Counted from the first letter of the stretch, positions 6,044-32,000 are shown. The stretch: 32,000 bases of DNA from Geobacter sulfurreducens PCA (GCF_000007985.2 NC_002939.5:1140001-1172000); one strand, 5' to 3'. The notes: generated by a model not told the origin, from the sequence alone. Numbers and translations: made by a program.

Positions 6044-6895
6044 TCAGGAGGCCAGGGGCATGACCTCGGCCGACGGCACGATCCTGTCACCATCCTCGCT
6101 GACCGTGTGGGCGCTGTGCTCGATCAGTTCGTAGAGGTGCCGGTACTTGGCCACCTCCATGGGCTGGGCCGTTTTCCTGCCGTAATACTTGCCCGGATGA
6201 GCGAAGACATCGGTGGCAACGCGATCGTCGTAGAGGGCGAAGTCGAAAGAGCTGTTGGTGTCGCGGCCGATGATCTCGCCCGCTGCCGGCAGCTCGTCCC
6301 GGTACACGATCCGGATGTCGATGTCGTCGCGGTAGTGGCTGAGGAGCACCTTCTGCACCTCCGGCTCTCCAAGTTCTTCCCGGTTGACGACAAAGATCCG
6401 CCTGATCCTCACGCCGCGGTCCAGGGCGCGCAGGTTTGCCTGGTAAAAGTTGACCAGGGCTCCCCTGGTCCACCATCCCGCCATCAGCGGATCCACGGCA
6501 CGTATTTCGCGTACCGCCTGATCGGACAGTTTCGCCCCTTCCAGGTAGAACTCATTCTCGTCCAGAGGAATGTACCCTTGCTGAAGAATCGTGATGGTGC
6601 GTCGGGTGCCGGCGATCAGCTCATGAGCCTTTGCCAGGCATTCGGGGTCGGCGATCCCGGCCATGGCAAAGGGGATTTCGTGGGCCTGCTGGTACTGTTC
6701 CACTAAGTGTGAGCGGTTTTTTTCGATCTCTTCGCGGATCAGGTAGGTGCCCAGGGCCAGCAGGATGCCGATGCCGAAGATCACGTAGGCGGCCTGCTCG
6801 TAGTGGAGCACCAGGTGGAAGAAGATCGCCAGTCCCGATCCCACGAGAAATTCGAGCCACACGGCCATTTCCTGTATCTTTTTTCCCATATTCAT
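6044..6895 (-). CDS. uncharacterised membrane-anchored protein (2 N-terminal TM helices plus about 200-aa soluble domain)
   Basis: 283-aa ORF with a strong SD (aaggagga, 7 nt before the ATG). TM segments are AVWLEFLVGSGLAIFFHLVL and AAYVIFGIGILLALGTYLI. I recognise no catalytic motif. Confidence 0.75.
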   Translation of the reverse strand: MNMGKKIQEMAVWLEFLVGSGLAIFFHLVLHYEQAAYVIFGIGILLALGTYLIREEIEKNRSHLVEQYQQAHEIPFAMAGIADPECLAKAHELIAGTRRTITILQQGYIPLDENEFYLEGAKLSDQAVREIRAVDPLMAGWWTRGALVNFYQANLRALDRGVRIRRIFVVNREELGEPEVQKVLLSHYRDDIDIRIVYRDELPAAGEIIGRDTNSSFDFALYDDRVATDVFAHPGKYYGRKTAQPMEVAKYRHLYELIEHSAHTVSEDGDRIVPSAEVMPLAS

Positions 6896-6921: not shown

Positions 6922-6973
6922 AAAAAAAGCCGGGTCGCCTGAATATCGATCTCGATAATTCGGCGACCCGGCT
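6922..6973 (-). terminator. intrinsic terminator (12-bp stem plus U7) directly upstream of the SD of the 283-aa gene; riboswitch expression platform
   Basis: Minus strand reads agccgggtcgcc-(22-nt loop)-ggcgacccggct then ttttttt. The SD and ATG follow within 25 nt. Confidence 0.75.
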
Positions 6974-7036
6974 GTCTCGGTGAGACCCTGTGGGCTTTCC
7001 GTCCCATCCTCGCGGATGGTTTAGTATTGTCGTGTA
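6922..7036 (-). promoter_or_regulatory. GEMM-I-type (c-di-GMP / 3',3'-cGAMP class) riboswitch with intrinsic-terminator expression platform
   Basis: Minus strand reads ACUAAA-CCAUCC-GCGA-GGAUGG-GACGGAAAGCC-CAC-AGGGUCUC-ACC-GAGAC-AGCCGGGUCGCC. This matches the remembered GEMM-I core: GCAAA-CC(stem)-GNRA-(stem)GG-GACGCAAAGCC ... GGGUC ... GACAGCCGGGUNGCC. The 3' core strand doubles as the 5' arm of the terminator. Confidence 0.7.
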
Positions 7037-15912: not shown

Positions 15913-17889
15913 TTAGTGGTCCACCGCTTTGGCGATGCCAATGCCGGTGTTCTGGCGGACGTACAGTTCGTCGAACATTTCCTCGGAACGCCGGCTCGGG
16001 AAAGCCAGAGCAGCAATGACCGCGGCGATGAAGCCCAGCGGGATGGACACTACGCCTGGATTCTTCAACGCGAAGAGGGGCTTGTCGAGACCGAGGAACG
16101 ATTTGCCGTCCTTGTTCTTTTCGTAGTCGGCCTTGGCTTTGCCCAGATCCTTCATTTCCTTCTCGGTAAGAACCGCACCACCGGCCTGTTTCTCCTCCAG
16201 CTTGACCACCACTTTCTGTGCGTCTTCAGCCACTTTCTTCGGATAGGTCATGTTGGGGGAGACCATCACCAGCGCGATGGAGACGACGGTGCCGGTCACC
16301 AGTCCCGCGATGACGCCGGCGGTGTTGAACTTCTTCCAGAAGAGGGAGAGTACGACGACCGGCAGGTTGCCCGAGGCGGCAACGGCGAAGGCCAGGGCCA
16401 CCAAGTGGGCAACGTTCTGCTTCTCGGCCGCGATGCCGATGGCGATGCCGCAGGCACCGACCACGAAGGAGGTGATCCGGGCAGCTTTAACCTGCTCGTG
16501 CTGGTCGGCGTGGCCCCCCTTGATGACGTTTACGTAGATGTCGTGGGCAATGGCGGCGGAAGCGGCCAGAACCAGACCCGAAACCACGGCCAGGATAGTG
16601 GCGAAGGCAACGGCGCACAGGAACGCCAGGAGCAGGTCACCCAGGAAGGGGTGGATGTCGCCGCCCAGTTGCTGGGCCAGCATCATGGCAGCCATGTTGC
16701 CACCCTTGTCCACATTCATGATGGATTGCGGGGTCACGTGGATGGCGGCGCCGAAGCCGAGAAGCGTGGTCAGGATGTAGAAGGAGCCGATGATGAACAT
16801 GGCGATGATGACCGACTTGCGGGCGGCCTGGGCCGTGGGCACGGTGAAGAAGCGCATCAGGATGTGAGGCATGCCGGCGGTGCCAAGCACCAGTGCCATG
16901 CCGAGAGAGATCTGGTCGAGCGGGTTCTTCAGGAAGAGGCCCGGCTCAAGGAAGCGCTGCCCGTAATCGAAGCCCGCCACGGCAACGGGGTCCTTGAGAA
17001 CCACCTTTTGGACGTGCTCGATGATGTTGGGGCTGGTAGCGATGTCGTTGAAGAACTGGAACGGGCTCATTCCCGACTTGAGGCCTACCAGGACGGAGAG
17101 CAGCGCAGCGCCGGACATGAGAAGGCCGGCCTTGATGATCTGGACCCAGGTGGTGGCGGTCATGCCGCCGAACACGACGTAGCCGACCATGAGGATGCCG
17201 ACGCCGATGACAGCGGTCTTGTAGGGGATGCCGAGCAGCAACTGCATCAGCTTGCCGGCACCGACCATCTGCGCGGTTAGGTAGAAGGTGGAGACAGCGA
17301 CGGTCGAGATGGCCGCGGCAGCCCGAACCGACTTGGGTTCGGTGCGGAAGGAGAGGATGTCGCCCAGGGTGAATTTACCGGCGTTACGGCAGGGTTCGGC
17401 CACGATCAGGAGCACCGTGATGTAGGCCACGAGCCAACCCACCGAGTACATGAACCCGTCATAGCCATAGAGGGAGATGATCCCGGAAATCCCCAGGAAG
17501 GAGGCGGCGGACATGTAGTCGCCCGCGATGGCCCAACCGTTCTGGGTGCCGGTGATGCCGCCGCCGGCGGTGTAGAAGTCGGCGGCCGACTTGGTCTGCT
17601 TGGCGGACCAGACGACAACCATCATGGTGGCACCGATGATGGCCAAGAAGATGGGGATGGTGACCATCGGGTTGGCCTTCAGTTCGTGCTTCTTCTCGGA
17701 CGGTGCTGCCGGCACGGCGGCCTTTTCGGTAACGGGCGCGGCCGGGGTCGGGGCCGCAGCCTGGACAGGGGCCGCGACGGCCTGCTCCTGGGGCGCGGCC
17801 GGTACTTTGACCGGCTCGCTGGCCCAAGCGAATGTGCCCAGCGACAGGGCAAGGGAAAACGCTGCAATGAGTCTCTTCATCGGGTTCAT
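15913..17889 (-). CDS. actP: cation/acetate symporter ActP family (SSF), paralog 1
   Basis: 658 aa. Solute:sodium symporter motifs (DFYTAGGGITGTQNGWAIAGDYMSAASFLG). Signal-like N-terminus. Preceded by a DUF485 gene, as in yjcH-actP. Confidence 0.93.
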   Translation of the reverse strand: MNPMKRLIAAFSLALSLGTFAWASEPVKVPAAPQEQAVAAPVQAAAPTPAAPVTEKAAVPAAPSEKKHELKANPMVTIPIFLAIIGATMMVVVWSAKQTKSAADFYTAGGGITGTQNGWAIAGDYMSAASFLGISGIISLYGYDGFMYSVGWLVAYITVLLIVAEPCRNAGKFTLGDILSFRTEPKSVRAAAAISTVAVSTFYLTAQMVGAGKLMQLLLGIPYKTAVIGVGILMVGYVVFGGMTATTWVQIIKAGLLMSGAALLSVLVGLKSGMSPFQFFNDIATSPNIIEHVQKVVLKDPVAVAGFDYGQRFLEPGLFLKNPLDQISLGMALVLGTAGMPHILMRFFTVPTAQAARKSVIIAMFIIGSFYILTTLLGFGAAIHVTPQSIMNVDKGGNMAAMMLAQQLGGDIHPFLGDLLLAFLCAVAFATILAVVSGLVLAASAAIAHDIYVNVIKGGHADQHEQVKAARITSFVVGACGIAIGIAAEKQNVAHLVALAFAVAASGNLPVVVLSLFWKKFNTAGVIAGLVTGTVVSIALVMVSPNMTYPKKVAEDAQKVVVKLEEKQAGGAVLTEKEMKDLGKAKADYEKNKDGKSFLGLDKPLFALKNPGVVSIPLGFIAAVIAALAFPSRRSEEMFDELYVRQNTGIGIAKAVDH

Positions 17890-18811: not shown

Positions 18812-20785
18812 CTAGTGATCGATGGCCTTGGCCATGCCGATGCCGGTGTTCTGGCGGACGTAGATCTCGTCGAACATTTCCTCGGAACGCCGGCTCGGGA
18901 AGGCCAGGCAGCCGATGATGGCGGCGAGGAAGCCCAGCGGGATCGAGATGATGCCCGGGTTCTTAAGTTTGATCAGCGGCTTGTCAAGGCCCAGCATGGA
19001 CTTGCCGTCCTTGTTCTTGGCGTAGTCGGCCTTTGCCTTGTCAAGGTCCTTCATTTCCTTTTCGGTGAGGACCGCACCACCGGCCTGTTTCTCTTCAAGC
19101 TTCGTGACGACTTTTTGGGCGTCGGCGGCAACGACCTTCGGATAGGTCATGTTGGGGGAGACCATCACCAGTGCGATGGAGGCGACGGTGCCGACCACGA
19201 GGCCCGACACGACGCCGGCGGTATTGAACTTCCGCCAGAAGAGGGACATGACTACGACCGGCAGGTTGCCCGAGGAGGCAACGGCGAAGGCCAGGGCCAC
19301 CAGGTGGGCGACGTTCTGCTTCTCGGCGGCGATGCCGATGATGATGCCCATGGCGCCGACGCACAGGGAGGTGATCCGGGCGGCCATGACCTGCTCGTGC
19401 TGGTCGGCGTGGCCGTCCTTGATGACGTTTACGTAGATGTCGTGGGCAATGGCGGCGGAAGCGGCCAGAACGAGACCCGACACGACGGCGAGGATGGTGG
19501 CGAAGGCAACGGCGCACAGGAACGCCAGGAGCAGGTCGCCCAGGAAGGGGGAGATGTCGCCGCCCAGTTGCTGGGCCAGCATCATGGCGGCCATGTTCCC
19601 GCCCTTGTCAACGGCGGTGATCCCTTGCGGGGTCACGTGGATGGCGGCGCCGAAGCCGAGAAGCGTGGTCAGGATGTAGAAGGAGCCAATGATGAACATG
19701 GCCACGATAACGGACTTGCGGGCGGCCTGGGCCGTGGGCACGGTGAAGAAGCGCATCAGGATGTGGGGCATGCCGGCGGTTCCGAGCACCAGTGCCATGC
19801 CGAGGGAGATCTGGTCGAGCGGGTTCTTCAGGAAGAGGCCCGGCTCAAGGAAGCGCTGCCCGTAATCGAAGCCCGCCACGGCAACGGGGTCCTTGAGAAC
19901 GGCCTTCTGGACGTGCTCGATGATGTTGGGGTTAGTGGCGATGTCGTTGAAGAAGGTGAACGGGTTCATGCCGGCCTTGAGGCCGACCAGGACGGAGAGG
20001 AGGCCCGCACCGGTCATGAGGAGGCCGGCCTTGATGATCTGAACCCAGGTGGTGGCGGTCATGCCGCCGAACACGACGTAGCCGACCATGAGGATGCCGA
20101 CGCCGATGATGGCGAACTTGTAGGGAATCCCGAGCAACAGCTGCATCAGCTTGCCGGCACCGACCATCTGAGCGGTCAGGTAGAAGGTGGAGACGGCAAC
20201 GACGGAGATGGCGCAAACGGCCCGGACGACCTTGGGCTCGGTGCGGAAGGAGAGGATGTCGCCCAGGGTGTACTTGCCCGCGTTGCGGCAGGGCTCTGCC
20301 ACGATCAGGAGCACCGTGATGTAGGCCACGAGCCAACCCACCGAGTACATGAACCCGTCATAGCCGTAGAGGGAGATCATGCCCGAAATCCCCAGGAAGG
20401 AGGCGGCGGACATGTAGTCGCCCGCGATGGCCCAACCGTTCTGGGTGCCGGTGATGCCGCCGCCGGCGGTGTAGAAGTCGGCGGCCGACTTGGTCCGCTT
20501 GGCCGACCAGACGACAACGGCCATGGTGGCGCCGATGATGATCAGGAAGATGGGGATGGTGACCATCGGGTTGGCCTTGATGCTCGTCTTCTTCTCGGCC
20601 GGCGCTGCCGGGGCCGGGGTGGCCACCTTGGCGGCGTCGGTGGCGGCCGCCGGAGTAGTGGCTGCCGGTGCAGTCGCGGCCGTCGGGGCGCCGGGGGCGG
20701 CCGGGGCCTTGGCCGGCTCTTCAGCGAAGGCGAACGAGCCCAGGGAGAGGGCCAGGGTGATACCAGCAATCAGTTTTTTCATCAC
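18812..20785 (-). CDS. actP: cation/acetate symporter ActP family, paralog 2
   Basis: 657 aa, collinear with paralog 1. Confidence 0.93.
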   Translation of the reverse strand: MMKKLIAGITLALSLGSFAFAEEPAKAPAAPGAPTAATAPAATTPAAATDAAKVATPAPAAPAEKKTSIKANPMVTIPIFLIIIGATMAVVVWSAKRTKSAADFYTAGGGITGTQNGWAIAGDYMSAASFLGISGMISLYGYDGFMYSVGWLVAYITVLLIVAEPCRNAGKYTLGDILSFRTEPKVVRAVCAISVVAVSTFYLTAQMVGAGKLMQLLLGIPYKFAIIGVGILMVGYVVFGGMTATTWVQIIKAGLLMTGAGLLSVLVGLKAGMNPFTFFNDIATNPNIIEHVQKAVLKDPVAVAGFDYGQRFLEPGLFLKNPLDQISLGMALVLGTAGMPHILMRFFTVPTAQAARKSVIVAMFIIGSFYILTTLLGFGAAIHVTPQGITAVDKGGNMAAMMLAQQLGGDISPFLGDLLLAFLCAVAFATILAVVSGLVLAASAAIAHDIYVNVIKDGHADQHEQVMAARITSLCVGAMGIIIGIAAEKQNVAHLVALAFAVASSGNLPVVVMSLFWRKFNTAGVVSGLVVGTVASIALVMVSPNMTYPKVVAADAQKVVTKLEEKQAGGAVLTEKEMKDLDKAKADYAKNKDGKSMLGLDKPLIKLKNPGIISIPLGFLAAIIGCLAFPSRRSEEMFDEIYVRQNTGIGMAKAIDH

Positions 20786-26793: not shown

Positions 26794-27015
26794 GATTTGT
26801 CTGCCGCCGCCCGCGCGGGTTGTCTCCTGTAAGGTTTTACTTGCTTGCCGCGACAGGGAAATGTAAGTTTTTGCGACAAAATCGCATAGTGATTTTAGCT
26901 TGTTACCGGAAAGATATCCTGTGGGGCGAAAAACCGTCGGGATTGTTTACGGTTTTATGGCGTAATCTTTCTGGGGCTGAGACAGATTTCTCAGTAAATT
27001 CAATGGTTGTGTGGC

Positions 27016-27031
27016 TGGCCTGCTAATTGCA
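27016..27031 (+). promoter_or_regulatory. sigma54 (-24/-12) promoter TGGCCT-N5-TTGCA
   Basis: cTGGCCTgctaaTTGCAtt with correct spacing, 49 nt upstream of the PEP-CTERM gene ATG. Confidence 0.55.
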
Positions 27032-27079
27032 TTATTTATAAATGAACCACTACCACCATCACAAAGAGAGGGAACAGTC

Positions 27080-27796
27080 ATGAAAACACAACATATGTTC
27101 ATACTTTCCCTGCTGATCGTCATGTTGACCGTAACCACGGCCCAGGCGGTAAGCCTTACGTACACCTACTCAGATAAGGATTATCTCGGCGGCGCTTCTT
27201 GGGGAAGCATGACTGCCTACGTGGAGGACGCCAACACCCTTGGGATCAGGTATACTGCGGCACCGACCTCGGTGATCGGCGCGGGCAGCACGGCAACGGG
27301 CTTTGCGTTTACGTTTTCCGGAGCTCTCCCCATCGCGATCTACAATCCGTCCCGGGGAGCCTTCGGCGACGATCAGGACGTTCTCAAGTGGGTGGTGTTT
27401 GAAAAAAAACTCAGCACCCTCCCTCCTCCCCAGAACGGTGATGAGTTCAATCCCGTGATCGACAACAAGTATGTGTTTGAATTCGCGGCCACCGAGGGGG
27501 ATGGGCGGTCCATCAATTCCACCGGCGTGAAAGCCGGCCAGAGCGACATCTTTTACATGGACTTCAACTCTTCCGCAGTCGATTTTCTGGCATTCTCGCT
27601 CGCGGACCTTAAGTCGTTCGTGGAACTGACCGCTGTCCGGTTGATGGGGCTTCCCAGCGACATCAATGGCGGCAGCCTGTTCCTTGCAGGCAAACTGGAA
27701 GACAGTACGCCTGCTCCGGTGCCCGAACCCGGTACGATCCTGCTGCTGGGGATTGGAATCGCAGGGCTCGGACTGTATCGGATGAAGCGCGGATAG
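27080..27796 (+). CDS. PEP-CTERM sorting-domain secreted protein
   Basis: Signal peptide MKTQHMFILSLLIVMLTVTTAQA. C-terminus VPEPGTILLLGIGIAGLGLYRMKRG (PEP motif, TM helix, basic tail). Start at ATG 27080 after gagaggga. Confidence 0.85.
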   Translation: MKTQHMFILSLLIVMLTVTTAQAVSLTYTYSDKDYLGGASWGSMTAYVEDANTLGIRYTAAPTSVIGAGSTATGFAFTFSGALPIAIYNPSRGAFGDDQDVLKWVVFEKKLSTLPPPQNGDEFNPVIDNKYVFEFAATEGDGRSINSTGVKAGQSDIFYMDFNSSAVDFLAFSLADLKSFVELTAVRLMGLPSDINGGSLFLAGKLEDSTPAPVPEPGTILLLGIGIAGLGLYRMKRG

Positions 27797-27987: not shown

Positions 27988-28530
27988 ATGAAACTACTGC
28001 TTCACATCTGCTGTGCCCCCTGCGCCATCTATCCGGTAAGCCGGCTCCGCGACAGCGGGGCGGATGTCACCGGTTTCTTTTTCAACCACAACATACATCC
28101 CTACCAGGAGTACCGCCGCCGGCTCGACACGGTCCTGGAATATGCGGACCGGATCGAGTTGCCGCTGGAGGTGCGGGACGAGTATCGCCTGGAGGAATTT
28201 CTGGCCGCCGTGGCCGGCAATCCGGCGGATCGATGCTGGTACTGCTATTTCTCGCGCCTGGATGCGGCTGCGGCCGCAGCGGCGGCGGGAGGCTTCGACG
28301 GGTTCACCTCATCGCTTCTCTACAGCCGCTACCAGAAGCACGACGACATCAGGATCGCTGCCGAGCGGGCCGCAGCGCGCCACGGGGTCGCTTTTGTCTA
28401 TGACGACTATCGCCGGGGCTGGCAGGACGGCATCCGCGTCTCCAAGGAGATGGGGCTCTACCGCCAGCAGTACTGCGGCTGCATCTACAGCGAAAAGGAC
28501 CGTTACCATCCCCGGCAGGGGAAAAAATGA
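27988..28530 (+). CDS. queH: epoxyqueuosine reductase QueH (DUF208)
   Basis: LLLHICCAPCAIYP, CWYCYFSRL and QQYCGCIYSE cysteine motifs. Confidence 0.88.
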   Translation: MKLLLHICCAPCAIYPVSRLRDSGADVTGFFFNHNIHPYQEYRRRLDTVLEYADRIELPLEVRDEYRLEEFLAAVAGNPADRCWYCYFSRLDAAAAAAAAGGFDGFTSSLLYSRYQKHDDIRIAAERAAARHGVAFVYDDYRRGWQDGIRVSKEMGLYRQQYCGCIYSEKDRYHPRQGKK

Positions 28531-28742
28531 TGCAGGGCCTCGGTAAGTCGCTCATAGTCATGGGGCTGGTCATTGCGGCCGTGGGCGTGCTCCTCACCGT
28601 TGCCGGCAAAATTCCGTGGATTGGCCGCCTCCCCGGCGACATCTACGTGAAACGGGATAACTTCACCGTTTATTTTCCCCTTGCCACCAGCATTCTCATA
28701 TCCCTGGTGCTCTCCCTCATCCTCTGGCTGCTGAGAAAATAA
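28527..28742 (+). CDS. DUF2905 small membrane protein
   Basis: 71 aa. GRLPGDIYVKRDNFTVYFPLATSILISLVLSLI matches the family as I remember it. ATGA overlap with queH. Confidence 0.8.
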   Translation: MMQGLGKSLIVMGLVIAAVGVLLTVAGKIPWIGRLPGDIYVKRDNFTVYFPLATSILISLVLSLILWLLRK

Positions 28743-28856
28743 GCCGTTCCTGCTGAAATTCCTCAAGTTTCACCACTTCTAACCGATAGATGCTACAGCT
28801 GCTTCGATCTAAAAGCGGTCGTTGTCGCGAGCGTCATTATGCGAACGGAGGGCCCC

Positions 28857-29915
28857 GTGGCGATCAACAGCATGAATACGGTATTTCTTGAGGTAGTCGA
28901 GTGGTTTGACGACAGCGGCCGGGAGATGGTGCGCCGCATCCCCCCCGAGGGGTCCGCCGAGATCAAATTGGGCGCCCAGCTGGTGGTGCGGGAGAGTCAG
29001 CGGGCGGTCTTCTTCAGGGACGGCAAGGCCGCCGACTGCTTTGGCCCCGGTAGGCATACCCTGACCAGCGCCAACCTGCCGATCCTGACTAAGCTCCTGT
29101 CGCTCCCCTGGGGAGGCACCTCTCCCTTCCGCTGCGAAGTCTGTTTCGTGGGAATACAGACCTTCACCGACCTGCGCTGGGGAACCAAGGAACCCGTTGC
29201 CTTCCGGGACAGCCGCTTTGGCATGGTACGGCTGCGGGCCTTCGGCACCTACACCCTGCGGGTGGTCGACCCGCAGCTCCTGGTGAACGCTCTGGTGGGA
29301 ACCCGGGGGCTTTACACCAGCAGCGAGCTGGAGGAACTGTTCCGCGACATCATCGTGGCGCGGCTCAACGACTACCTGGGCGAAACCATCGACTCGGTTC
29401 TGGATCTGCCCGCCCGCTACGATGAGACTTCTGCTGCGCTCAAGGAACGCCTGGCAGGAGACTTCGGAGGATTCGGCATCGAACTGGCCGAACTTTACGT
29501 GAACGCGATCACTCCCCCGCCGGAGGTCCAGAAGGCAATCGACGAGCGCACCTCCATGGAGGCGGCCGGCGATGTGGATCGCTACCTGAAGTTCAAGGCG
29601 GCCCGAAGCCTGGAAGCGGCGGCCTCGGCCGAGGGGGGCGGCGAGGCTGCCCAGGGGATGGGGATCGGGGTCGGTGCCGGTCTCGGCATGATTCTCCCCG
29701 GTATGGTGGCGAATGCCATGGCACAGGGAGCTGATGCGTCCGCTCCTGTCGGCACGGGTAGCTGTCCCCGCTGTATGGCGCCGTTGGTGGCGGGTGGAAA
29801 TTTTTGCCATCAGTGCGGCGCCCCGGTAGAGTCCGGCTTTTGCTCCGGCTGCGGCAAGCCGCTGCCGACAGAAGCTCGCTTCTGCCCCGGCTGCGGACGG
29901 CAGGCCGGAGCATAG
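28857..29915 (+). CDS. SPFH/Band-7_1 family protein (B. subtilis YdjI-like, COG4260) with C-terminal double zinc ribbon
   Basis: [20 protein letters not shown]...[21 protein letters not shown]...[16 protein letters not shown]...[13 protein letters not shown]. Gly-rich hydrophobic segment [23 protein letters not shown]. Four CxxC pairs at the C-terminus. Likely start is GTG 28857 (ggaggg 5 nt upstream). Alternative starts are 28839 and 28872. Confidence 0.85.
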
Positions 29916-29918
29916 GCG

Positions 29919-30638
29919 GTGACCATCGCCTGCCCCCAGTGCGGCGCCACGGCCGAAGCCCGCACCGATACCCGTTTCCACGGCTGTGCCTTCTGCGGTT
30001 CATCCTTCATGGTGGAACGGGGTGTCGGCATCGCCGAATACCACCTGGACCACGAGCGGGACGATCGGGTGGCGTGGAGCGCAGTGGCCTCCACCCTCGA
30101 GCGGGATGGTGCCGGACAGGCCGTGGAGCGGACCGGCTGCGAGTATCTGGTTGCGCCCTTCTGGCTCTCGCGACCTGAAAGTGGAGGGAATCGGCTCGTG
30201 CCGGCCCTGCGTCATCCCTGGCTTCAGGGTCCCCTCCCCGGCCTGCCCGGCGGCGACCTTCTCTTCGTCCCGTCGGGGGACGACTTCATCCTGCCCGACA
30301 TCCCGGCCGACGAGGCATTAGGGGAAGGAGCCGACCGTGGCGGCACCTCCCTCAGCCTCGTTTACCTCCCTCTCTATCTCCTTTCCTTCCGCCTTGCCGG
30401 TCACGACTGCAGGGCACTGGTTTCGGCGGTGGACCGGCGGGTCGCGCTCCTGACGCCCCTCCCGGCCCGGTCCGAGTCGGTGCCGTTTCGCCACGCTGCA
30501 CTGGTGGCCGGTTTTGCCATCACGCTCACTGCCTCCGGGCTGGCCGTGAAGAGCCACTTTCTCAGGGCAGCCGTCTTCGCGGCTGTGCTGGCCGTTGCCT
30601 GGCCGGTCTGCACCGCATTGCTCCGACGGGGGGAGTAA
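29919..30638 (+). CDS. zinc-ribbon protein with two C-terminal TM helices, paralog 1
   Basis: GTG start 3 nt after the SPFH stop. CPQCG-x14-CAFCG. PFW motif. C-terminal hydrophobic helices. Confidence 0.7.
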   Translation: MTIACPQCGATAEARTDTRFHGCAFCGSSFMVERGVGIAEYHLDHERDDRVAWSAVASTLERDGAGQAVERTGCEYLVAPFWLSRPESGGNRLVPALRHPWLQGPLPGLPGGDLLFVPSGDDFILPDIPADEALGEGADRGGTSLSLVYLPLYLLSFRLAGHDCRALVSAVDRRVALLTPLPARSESVPFRHAALVAGFAITLTASGLAVKSHFLRAAVFAAVLAVAWPVCTALLRRGE

Positions 30639-31615
30639 TGAGCGAGCGGCAGACGGTCACCATATCCTGTCCCCAGTGTGCAAGCCCCTTTTCGTTCAGC
30701 GAAGGCAACCGCAATGCTCTCTGTCCCTCTTGCGGAACCTCTCTGGCAGTTTCCGGCGAAGCGGGCATTCCCCGATTTGTTATTGCTGAGCGGATTGACC
30801 GTACCCAGGCGCGCGCCGCTGCCCGCAAGGCCGCGGCGGCTGCCGGCGGCGACCCGAAGGTGGTGGAACTGCTCCGGTTTGAAGGGGACGAGCTGTGCTT
30901 CCTTCCATTCTGGCGGCTGCGGGGCCATGCGGCCGGCTGGCTCTGGACCGAGCGGGAGACTCGGGTCCAGCAGGAAGAGTACGATGAGAACGGTATGCGG
31001 ACGGTTCGGGAGGTGCGCGGACCCGTGGAAAGCGGTACCGAGACGGTCATGATTGCCGTGGACTACAGCTCTCCCGCCTGCGATACGTCACGCTTCGGCC
31101 TGCGGGGCATCGCCGTGGCAAGCGCGGTCCTGCCGCTTGCGGGGATGGATTTCGCCGAGGTTTCCCGCCGGGGCACGGTCTTTGATCCGGTCACGACGCC
31201 GGATCAGGTGAGGCGGGAAGCACTGGCCCAGGCCCGGTCCCGGGGCGGAGGAAAGGGAGTGCTCCGCTCGGCCGGCCGTCTCGCCCTCTGTGGGGAGCGC
31301 ATCGCCCTCATTTCATATCCGGTCTGGAGCCTCACGTTTTCCCGCGGCGAGCGGCTCTATCACGTGGCCGTGGACGGGGTGAACGGTCGCGTCCTCGCCG
31401 GGCGCCTTCCGGCCGCCGTGCGGATTGCGGTGCTGCGCCCCCTGTCGACGGTCACGCTCCTGATCTATTCCTTCACTCTCCATCCGCTGGTCGGATTTGT
31501 CGTCGTCGGCGCTTTCCTGGCCTGGCTCGCCGCCAACGGCGGGTTGTCGATCGAGCGTTTGACCATCTGGTTCTTTGGCATGATAGAACGGAGAGGGGAG
31601 GTGGAGCTTGGCTGA
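30638..31615 (+). CDS. zinc-ribbon protein with two C-terminal TM helices, paralog 2
   Basis: TAATG stop/start overlap. CPQC-x14-CPSCG. LPFW and YPVW...VAVDGVNGRV motifs. Two C-terminal TM helices. Confidence 0.7.
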   Translation: MSERQTVTISCPQCASPFSFSEGNRNALCPSCGTSLAVSGEAGIPRFVIAERIDRTQARAAARKAAAAAGGDPKVVELLRFEGDELCFLPFWRLRGHAAGWLWTERETRVQQEEYDENGMRTVREVRGPVESGTETVMIAVDYSSPACDTSRFGLRGIAVASAVLPLAGMDFAEVSRRGTVFDPVTTPDQVRREALAQARSRGGGKGVLRSAGRLALCGERIALISYPVWSLTFSRGERLYHVAVDGVNGRVLAGRLPAAVRIAVLRPLSTVTLLIYSFTLHPLVGFVVVGAFLAWLAANGGLSIERLTIWFFGMIERRGEVELG

Positions 31616-32000
31616 CCGGCACGATCTGCGGGTGATCCCGCTCCGTTGCCCCGATTGCGGCGGTGGCCTTTCGGCTGCGGGTGAGGATGTCATCTTCCCC
31701 TGCCGGCGGTGCGGCACGTTCCGGGAACTGGAGGGGGAGACTCTGGCTCTGCGCCAGGTCCTCCACGCGGCCGGACCTGACCTGGATGCCCCGCCCGGGG
31801 CGCGGCGCACCATGGCGCGGCTGCCGTTCTGGGTTTTCCCGTTCCGCGCCGCGAGTTCCGGCGGCGAGGCGGCAACCCTGCGCGACTACCTGTCCCTGAC
31901 AGGCACCATCAAGACGCCTGACCCTGCTCGGGCGGAAAAGCCGCCGCTCGTCTTCGTGCCTGCTTTCGCCGCCAAGCCGGCACCCCTCCTGCGTGCGGGG
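31608..32000 (+). CDS. zinc-ribbon protein, paralog 3 (partial, runs off window end)
   Basis: Own translation: (TTG)ADRHDLRVIPLRCPDCGGGLSAAGEDVIFPCRRCGTFRELEG...ARLPFWVFPFRAAS...PLVFVPAFAAKPAPLLRAG. The frame is open to base 32000. Start is TTG 31608 (8-nt overlap) or GTG 31632. Confidence 0.6.
   Translation, partial: MADRHDLRVIPLRCPDCGGGLSAAGEDVIFPCRRCGTFRELEGETLALRQVLHAAGPDLDAPPGARRTMARLPFWVFPFRAASSGGEAATLRDYLSLTGTIKTPDPARAEKPPLVFVPAFAAKPAPLLRAG

Follow-up and report, generated by a model that had tools for sequence, protein, structure and literature searches.

The stretch of Geobacter sulfurreducens PCA DNA analysed here (32,000 nucleotides, NC_002939.5:1140001-1172000; hereafter the window) ends in four plus-strand genes that follow one another in tight coupling, the first coding for an SPFH protein (P1) and the other three for zinc-ribbon proteins (P2, P3 and P4). 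As judged from its sequence, the locus is a self-contained four-gene operon. The genes and their recognisable parts are the following:

28839..29915, + strand: P1, soluble SPFH protein of the Band_7_1/COG4260 (YdjI/SamI) type; longest open reading frame (ORF), 358 amino acids
28953..29561, + strand: SPFH (Band_7_1) domain of P1, residues 39-241, matching profile positions 8-210 of 211
29634..29729, + strand: Gly/Met/Ala-rich hydrophobic low-complexity segment of P1, residues ~266-297
29763..29900, + strand: C-terminal double zinc ribbon of P1 (CPRC..CHQC, CSGC..CPGC), residues 309-354
29919..30638, + strand: P2, predicted YdjG/SamG-superfamily protein, 239 amino acids
29931-29996, + strand: Cys4 ribbon of P2, residues 5-26 (C5/C8/C23/C26)
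30492-30626, + strand: C-terminal hydrophobic hairpin of P2, residues 192-236, from hydropathy
30638..31615, + strand: P3, predicted YdjG/SamG-superfamily protein, 325 amino acids
30668-30733, + strand: Cys4 ribbon of P3, residues 11-32 (C11/C14/C29/C32)
31433-31552, + strand: C-terminal two-helix hairpin of P3, residues ~266-305, from hydropathy (271-305) and an AlphaFold2 (AF2) model
31608..32000, + strand: P4, TTG start; the N-terminal 131 of its 217 amino acids lie inside the window
31647-31712, + strand: Cys4 ribbon of P4, residues 14-35 (C14/C17/C32/C35)

The P1 and P2 genes are separated by 3 nucleotides, whereas P2 and P3 overlap by 1 nucleotide and P3 and P4 by 8 nucleotides. The P4 gene ends 261 nucleotides past the window, its complete 217-amino-acid product being encoded on an overlapping contig (L001:10590-11243), and it is followed, just past the window end, by a terminator-like hairpin with a T-run. 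The longest ORF of P1 begins with the ATG at 28839, and an alternative GTG at 28857 gives a protein of 352 amino acids; because a GGAGGG sequence (28847-28852) lies four bases before this GTG, and because the forms of P1 in the NCBI records also have 352 amino acids, the GTG is likely to be the true start. Four CxxC motifs were found in the tail of P1 (residues 309, 323, 335 and 349) and two in the N-terminus of each of P2, P3 and P4, making ten CxxC pairs and hence five zinc ribbons. The ORF coordinates, the junctions and the motif count thus confirmed what an earlier, sequence-only reading of the window had described, namely four coupled genes encoding five ribbons.

The same reading had assigned the first protein to the Band_7_1 branch of SPFH proteins, and its score against Pfam PF13421 was far over the cut-off (E=2.9e-67, 226.8 bits, cut-off 24), with a further match to PF01145 (1.2e-13). 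It had also described this protein as lacking a transmembrane (TM) helix and having a Gly-rich segment and two C-terminal ribbons, a description with which hydropathy, cross-phylum conservation and the ribbon matches agreed: no hydrophobic segment of TM strength was present anywhere in P1 (none reaches KD19>=1.6), the Gly/Met-rich segment being under the TM threshold, and the ribbons matched Pfam DZR (2.4e-11; 44 bits vs a cut-off of 27.3) and Zn_Ribbon_1 (1.5e-08). An equivalent of the Gly/Met-rich segment, GxGxGAGMxM, was found in the SPFH partners of Ignavibacteria, Acidobacteriota, Methylomirabilota and archaea, irrespective of the C-terminal module that they carry. A search of PDB sequences with P1 gave nothing beyond generic ribbons.

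For comparison, a B. subtilis-type pspA-ydjGHI locus of metagenome source was used, which was located via the published ydjG primer (PMC8581546); the B. subtilis operon has been renamed pspA-samGHI. BLASTP aligned P1 to the YdjI of this locus over its full length (26% identity, E=3e-31), from residue 18 through the final ribbon and including the Gly/Met-rich linker. An additional CEVC at residue 99 of P1 was not counted as a ribbon, because it lies inside the SPFH domain and is missing from YdjI in the pairwise alignment. YdjI likewise has a C-terminal zinc ribbon (PMC8581546), so the ribbons of P1 are a common feature of the two proteins and not, as had been claimed, a difference from B. subtilis.

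P2, P3 and P4 each begin with a ribbon made of two CxxC pairs, at the positions given above and as had been foreseen. The ribbon cysteines were invariant or almost so in the homolog alignments, and both pairs were retained in other phyla by 74/77 P2-like, 79/80 P3-like and 74/74 P4-like proteins, so that, on these alignments, their conservation is not due to chance. Between ribbon and hairpin, P2 has an alpha/beta core with PFW and LPLY motifs, while the core of P3 carries FLPFW and SYPVW...VDGVNGR motifs as well as a beta-hairpin insert specific to P3, and the tail of P3 after its hairpin contains a conserved GEV..G. The proposal that the two partners complete in the window end in two TM helices was supported by hydropathy for P2 and P3 and by the AF2 model of P3, in which the helices span residues 266-281 and 283-299. 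The broader claim of three membrane paralogs, in contrast, stood for P2 and P3 but not for P4, since no hydrophobic segment was found in the 217 amino acids of P4, nor in 73/74 of its orthologs. No signal peptide was detected in any of the three proteins; as the ribbons and cores precede the sole TM segments and P4 has none, we infer that all the globular parts of P2, P3 and P4 are cytoplasmic, where the TM-less SPFH protein must also be.

None of the three proteins reached the cut-off of any Pfam or NCBIfam model, the matches being sub-threshold ones to ribbons and a single weak one to PepSY. Close homologs in Geobacter and its relatives numbered 23 for P2, 40 for P3 and 31 for P4, and when the P3-family profile was used in an exhaustive search it gave 828 cluster representatives at E<=1e-3, 300 of them also passing E<=1e-10. 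These are mostly 320-380 amino acids long and have an N-terminal CxxC..CxxC followed by 'lPFW', then the motif 'YYPLWvvRYxYxGRxYqvvVDGxxGxvlxGrAPG' and hydrophobic helices after it; no Pfam model reached its cut-off on the core of this family, and a PDB sequence search with the family profile found generic ribbons only. When profiles combining Geobacter-clade and distant sequences were compared with hhalign, P2 matched P3 with 99.8% probability (E=4e-30, 196 columns), P3 matched P4 with 96.8% (E=2.6e-10, over 204 columns, the entire length of P4) and P2 matched P4 with 96.9% (E=1.4e-10, 66 columns). A 51-member P3-family profile also matched residues 52-337 of YdjG (98.7%, E=4.2e-16, 259 columns), spanning its second ribbon, core and TM segment, and the broad profiles of P2, P3 and P4 found YdjG both in hhalign (96.0, 96.8 and 92.3%, respectively) and in hmmsearch with Z=1 (2.4e-16, 3.1e-15 and 4e-12), with only partial alignment to YdjG in the case of the P2 and P4 profiles. 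As their profiles match each other and YdjG, P2, P3 and P4 are taken to be mutual paralogs and members of the YdjG/SamG superfamily, a relationship that was visible with profiles only.

The loci related to that of Geobacter were collected by scanning one genome per species with a pattern taken from the subfamily alignment, which gave 186 confirmed loci, of which the best 80 were kept. This procedure skews the sample in favour of the best hits and of proteins that carry the YPLW[VIL][VL]RY motif. The ORFs at these 80 loci were classified with Geobacter-clade-only profiles and with P1, YdjI, PspA and YdjH as single queries. The bacterial loci belong to Ignavibacteria and related bins, Chloroflexota, Acidobacteriota (Thermoanaerobaculia, Vicinamibacteria) and Methylomirabilota, and the archaeal ones to Methanoperedens, ANME-2, Hadarchaeota and one Thermococci metagenome-assembled genome (MAG). 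The loci were distributed as follows:

SPFH-P2-P3-P4 in the exact Geobacter order: 50/80
SPFH present, locus cut by the contig end: 4/80
SPFH present, scrambled ORF call at a high-GC locus: 1/80
P2-P3-P4 with SPFH not detected adjacent: 20/80, mainly Chloroflexota
Partial fragments (only P3-P4 or P2-P3): 5/80

The loci with the complete order came from Ignavibacteria, Acidobacteriota, Methylomirabilota, Methanoperedens/ANME-2, Hadarchaeota and the Thermococci MAG, and the genes in other phyla are also closely spaced, with median gaps of 10 nucleotides between P2 and P3 and 3 nucleotides between P3 and P4. Conservation as a block had been set beforehand as a test of the sequence-only reading, lack of it being the refuting outcome, and the opposite was found, the block being held in these 50 distant loci. 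Each locus contained at most one gene of each of the P2, P3 and P4 groups, indicating that they are three old orthologous groups. The description of the partner as triplicated, if understood as a local event, had therefore to be abandoned: the three groups are ancient, have a fixed order and occur in many phyla, archaea included, and their separate conservation across phyla rules out a recent tandem triplication. In two Geobacterales relatives (~50% identity) the order QueH-DUF2905-SPFH-P2-P3-P4 was retained while the outer flanks differed. When 148 ORFs flanking the cassette at 46 loci were surveyed with Pfam, the neighbours proved to be housekeeping genes that differ from lineage to lineage. 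In Methanoperedens (L034), the neighbours are HemD and CobQ on one side and pyridoxal phosphate and thiamine pyrophosphate enzymes on the other. Neither the SPFH-P2-P3-P4 cassette nor the three families nor the gene called X below was found described in the libraries and papers searched.

The SPFH proteins of the related loci differed in their C-terminal ends. One to three ribbons were present in the SPFH proteins of Geobacter, archaea, Acidobacteriota and Methylomirabilota, a SHOCT-like C-terminus replaced them in the Ignavibacteria/Chlorobi proteins inspected (3-4; L012, L016, L038, L044; Chlorobi bin OLB5), and 41/55 SPFH genes at related loci had no CxxC within the last 70 residues of the product. 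Because the Gly/Met-rich segment was found in every lineage inspected while the C-terminal module varies, these sequences make the tail look like an adaptor that can be exchanged, and the segment like an element central to the function. One of the SHOCT-like tails reads ...TIEKLGKMKEAGLITQEEFDAKKKDLLAKL; the proteins with such tails retain the Gly/Met-rich segment.

The choice of the B. subtilis pspA-ydjGHI operon as the nearest analogue was correct, given the full-length alignment of P1 to YdjI and the profile matches of P2-P4 to YdjG. P1 and YdjI/SamI are alike in being Band_7_1 SPFH proteins without a TM segment, with a Gly/Met-rich low-complexity linker and a C-terminal ribbon, and P2, P3 and P4 resemble YdjG/SamG in having a Cys4 ribbon as well as a core marked by the motifs PFW and (Y)YP(L)W...DG..G. 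This core is followed by a C-terminal TM anchor in YdjG/SamG, P2 and P3 but not in P4, and the anchor is a two-helix hairpin in P2 and P3 and a single tail helix in YdjG. Each of P2, P3 and P4 has one ribbon, which aligns to the second of the two ribbons of YdjG. Ravi et al. described YdjG as consisting of two ribbons, a YpeB-related core whose fold is NTF2-like, and also a TM segment. The weak match of P3 to PepSY (residues 225-254, E=0.004, on YPVW...VDGVNGRVL) would fit this PepSY/YpeB-like core, but it is below the cut-off and was obtained for only 1/51 members of the P3 family; moreover, PepSY domains are classically extracytoplasmic, whereas the cores of P2-P4 are predicted to be cytoplasmic.

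At the level of the operon, SPFH and zinc-ribbon genes are neighbours in both organisms, being co-transcribed in B. subtilis and predicted to be so in Geobacter. The SPFH gene comes first in Geobacter and last in B. subtilis, a difference that had been pointed out from the sequence and that the gene order bore out, and there are three YdjG-like genes in the Geobacter cassette and one in B. subtilis. Furthermore, neither pspA nor the TPM-domain gene ydjH/samH was detected with the Geobacter cassette. A single B. subtilis PspA query found no PspA-like ORF in the window, as had been stated for the region upstream of the cassette, nor in the 10 kb downstream, and pspA was absent from the Pfam labels of the genes called near the cassette and in the two Geobacterales relatives. 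PspA, TPM and gene X had no match in the window, L001 or L089, PspA and TPM had none at any of the 80 loci, and PspA, TPM, NfeD and Vps4 were not among the recurrent families of the 148 flanking ORFs; the search for PspA consisted of one B. subtilis query together with Pfam labels and a top-25 census, and may have missed a pspA that is divergent or distant. No TPM domain was found by Pfam in P2-P4, whereas YdjH itself scores 3.1e-23 against TPM_phosphatase, so that the likening of the partners to YdjG and YdjH was right for YdjG, by the profiles, and failed for YdjH, of which no TPM equivalent was detected. Since neither of two defining components, pspA and the TPM protein, was found when looked for, membership of the protein families is supported and membership of the pspA-SamGHI system is not, and what has been learnt in B. 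subtilis on PspA recruitment and SamH signalling is not directly transferable to Geobacter.

In B. subtilis, YdjG and YdjH are required for the membrane localisation of YdjI, and YdjI is required for the formation of PspA foci (PMC8581546); SamI restrains SamGH signalling (bioRxiv 10.64898/2026.02.06.704340). SPFH proteins are reported to form membrane-attached rings or cages. By analogy with these systems we consider it probable (about 60%) that P2, P3 and P4 constitute an inner-membrane platform to which the SPFH protein P1 is docked and at which it is held as a cage. P2 and P3 would be kept in the inner membrane by their C-terminal helical hairpins, P4 would be a soluble subunit, and the three proteins could assemble into a hetero-oligomeric platform on the membrane's cytoplasmic face, serving as a receptor or sensor. 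This platform would dock the TM-less P1 and so bring it to the membrane, where P1 would oligomerise over the platform into a ring or cage, as is typical for SPFH proteins; the Gly/Met-rich segment might aid membrane association or ring closure, and the C-terminal ribbons might be an exchangeable docking module or adaptors. By analogy with SamGHI, the SPFH cage would organise and restrain the membrane complex, and a perturbation of the bilayer would change the assembly and lead to a protective response, any effector of the ESCRT-III/PspA type being presumably encoded elsewhere. The description of the locus as an uncharacterised membrane-scaffold or membrane-stress module is still the best one.

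Similar arrangements are known for other SPFH proteins, since in HflK/C-FtsH, QmcA-YbbJ/NfeD and stomatin-NfeD the SPFH gene likewise adjoins genes of membrane proteins which its product is presumed to enclose or organise. P1 differs from the SPFH proteins of these systems in lacking an N-terminal anchor, in belonging to the Band_7_1 branch and in having no sequence relative in the PDB, and its partners are neither NfeD nor FtsH; no NfeD domain was found in P2-P4 or in the neighbour genes. What defines the archaeal 'Meth_adaptin' loci (Makarova et al. 2024, PMC10936438) is the presence of Vps4, ESCRT-III and adaptin-appendage proteins. Such an ESCRT context was ruled out for the cassette of Methanoperedens L034, whose flanks are metabolic, with no adjoining AAA ATPase or ESCRT-III gene, and genes of the Vps4/ESCRT-III type were not recurrent in the flank census of the 46 loci.

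Several results weigh against the docking of P1 on a platform of YdjG-like proteins. In the B. subtilis two-hybrid assays, YdjI contacted the TPM protein YdjH and not YdjG (PMC8581546), and since YdjH has no detected counterpart here, to regard YdjG-like proteins as the direct receptor of the SPFH protein is an extrapolation; direct docking of P1 by them is the weakest link of the model. The assembly of P1-P4 and its stoichiometry are predicted from gene order, and single-sequence phmmer with YdjG gave nothing in Geobacter P2-P4 at E<=0.1. The AF2 model of P3 was of moderate confidence, with a predicted local distance difference test (pLDDT) score of 70, that of P4 being better (pLDDT 86.5, predicted template modelling score 0.85). 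Foldseek searches of the PDB gave only noise for P3 (E>=0.04) and ribbon-only matches at E>1 for P4, so the fold offers no functional clue. A full-text search for expression data under GSU1081-GSU1086, locus tags that were guessed and are unverified, returned no paper. Finally, at least 14 of the loci without SPFH, mostly of Chloroflexota, have at least 3 kb of upstream DNA and still no SPFH gene, showing that the P2-P3-P4 triad can exist without an adjacent one.

These orphan triads keep alive the variant in which the triad itself is the functional machine, that is, a sensing or signalling complex at the membrane that faces the cytoplasm and has an output of its own, and the SPFH protein is an optional regulator instead of an anchored cargo; the operon would then be mainly a device for signalling and not a scaffold. 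The triad is more widely conserved than SPFH, which is not adjacent in the 20/80 loci mentioned, and its N-terminal ribbons hardly vary, in contrast to the SPFH tail, which can consist of ribbons or be SHOCT-like; in addition, the phenotype of a samI deletion in B. subtilis arises from SamGH activity that is no longer restrained, and a samH deletion suppresses it (bioRxiv 10.64898/2026.02.06.704340). However, no output domain (kinase, helix-turn-helix (HTH), cyclase) is recognisable in P2, P3 or P4, and signalling in B. subtilis is attributed mainly to the TPM protein SamH, of which no counterpart was detected in Geobacter. We regard this variant, which overlaps the docking model and differs from it only in which component is primary, as rather unlikely. 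The orphan triads include L048, L050, L055, L068, L073, L075 and L085, from Chloroflexota and some unclassified bacteria, and upstream of them lie unrelated genes, such as a divergent gene for elongation factor P.

The patchy spread of the cassette over distant bacteria and archaea with its order kept would fit horizontal transfer, and this, together with the exchangeable C-terminal modules and the fact that many defence systems consist of uncharacterised small proteins, could be taken to indicate an anti-phage or abortive-infection module, that is, a mobile cassette sensing infection at the membrane with the zinc-ribbon proteins as sensors. PADLOC (PADLOC-DB v2) nevertheless gave no significant match for the four proteins (best E 0.012-0.067, confined to the ribbon), they lack any domain of nuclease, protease, NTPase or toxin-like type, and the surroundings are of the housekeeping kind (ruvCAB, queH, ubiB, lpxC, hemD, cobQ), with stable synteny within Geobacterales and no recurrent defence genes flanking the 46 loci, where 2/148 ORFs matched a phage-derived Gp49-like family. 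Still less probable than this improbable defence function is that the zinc-ribbon proteins are membrane-tethered regulators that bind nucleic acids through TFIIB-like ribbons and are freed or sequestered by the SPFH scaffold. Popp et al. proposed a regulatory, DNA-binding role, the loss of SamI causes global transcriptional changes in B. subtilis, and the first ribbon of YdjG matches Zn_Ribbon_TF, of the TFIIB type, at 1.4e-11; but the one ribbon that each of P2, P3 and P4 has stays below every Pfam cut-off and is equivalent to the second ribbon of YdjG, not to its TFIIB-like first one. Cys4 ribbons are also common as protein-protein interaction modules, no HTH or other nucleic-acid-binding domain was found, and P2 and P3 appear permanently anchored, with no evident cleavage site or protease partner. 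Both the defence and the nucleic-acid readings thus have little support.

A further gene was repeatedly found with the cassette. In 35/80 related loci, archaeal ones included, the SPFH gene is immediately preceded by gene X, which was not found at the Geobacter locus. It encodes a helical protein of ~176 amino acids with the motifs IPGYxGY..RE.RRE.D and GYSGxFD..K..E.EL..LYEFD, for which no match was obtained in Pfam or among PDB sequences. Examples of the gene are:

L040:4031-4561, gene X
L034:4502-5032, gene X
L033:4614-5123, gene X
L060:4419-4979, gene X

In hhalign comparisons, gene X had a probability of 0.4% against B. subtilis PspA and likewise of 0.4% against the phasin-like protein encoded downstream of P4 in Geobacter, so it was rejected as an analogue of either. 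X might belong to the cassette as a so far unrecognised component or effector. One may tentatively imagine, at somewhat less than even odds, an ancient autonomous membrane machine of bacteria and archaea, preceded in many lineages by gene X, in which P2, P3 and P4 form a heterotrimeric receptor for the soluble SPFH cage at the cytoplasmic face of the membrane and from which the PspA-SamGHI system of Bacillus, a Firmicute version, would be derived by the loss of two paralogs and the gain of TPM and PspA.

In Geobacter the SPFH gene is immediately preceded by two genes that overlap by 4 nucleotides:

27988-28530: queH, epoxyqueuosine reductase (QueH 5.3e-60)
28527..28742, + strand: DUF2905 small membrane protein, 71 amino acids (Pfam PF11146 1.7e-25)

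The gap between the DUF2905 and SPFH genes is 2 nucleotides in one of the Geobacterales relatives. DUF2905 was not found next to the cassette in other phyla by the flank census, so its membership is uncertain, and it is a possible lineage-specific companion. On the other side, beyond the terminator-like site, a phasin-family gene and then ubiB are found (contig L001, which extends 10 kb beyond the window); this region, L001:11327-13323, encodes a phasin-family (PF05597) coiled-coil protein of 105 amino acids and a UbiB/ABC1 kinase, and the same pair was seen again downstream of the cassette in one Geobacterales relative and not in another.

Other features were observed elsewhere in the window. 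An aptamer of the cyclic di-GMP-I riboswitch (RF01051; 42.9 bits vs a gathering score of 35) is located at 6959-7035 on the minus strand, just upstream of an ORF of 282 amino acids (6044-6895, minus strand) that matches no Pfam family. Two tandem paralogous genes for sodium:solute symporters (PF00474, ~657 amino acids each) are found at 15913-17889 and 18812-20785 on the minus strand, and the spacer between them (~18.0-18.8 kb) is low in GC (0.51 vs ~0.61 elsewhere), as is a second stretch at 22-23 kb, near a gene for an IclR-family regulator. Between genes for an Hda-like DnaA paralog and queH, a protein with a PEP-CTERM sorting signal (PF07589, 2.8e-06) is encoded at 27011-27796.

SPFH proteins are universal and their mechanisms are poorly understood. 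To our knowledge, the Band_7_1 branch has a single studied example, YdjI/SamI of B. subtilis, which has been read as an adaptor for PspA. In archaea and in a number of bacterial phyla, the SPFH gene stands beside YdjG-like genes, whereas among the loci examined pspA and TPM occur only in the Firmicute operon; the SPFH/YdjG-like pairing is a broadly conserved core, and its wide distribution without pspA and TPM suggests that its function is probably other than that of a PspA adaptor. Three unannotated families that always travel together have been defined, and their joint travel predicts a discrete hetero-oligomer. G. sulfurreducens is genetically tractable, and its physiology leans heavily on inner-membrane integrity and electron transfer. 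If the cassette is indeed an ancient autonomous machine, the primary job of the Band_7_1 SPFH branch would be independent of PspA/ESCRT-III, and gene X may be the effector of the cassette that has so far escaped recognition.

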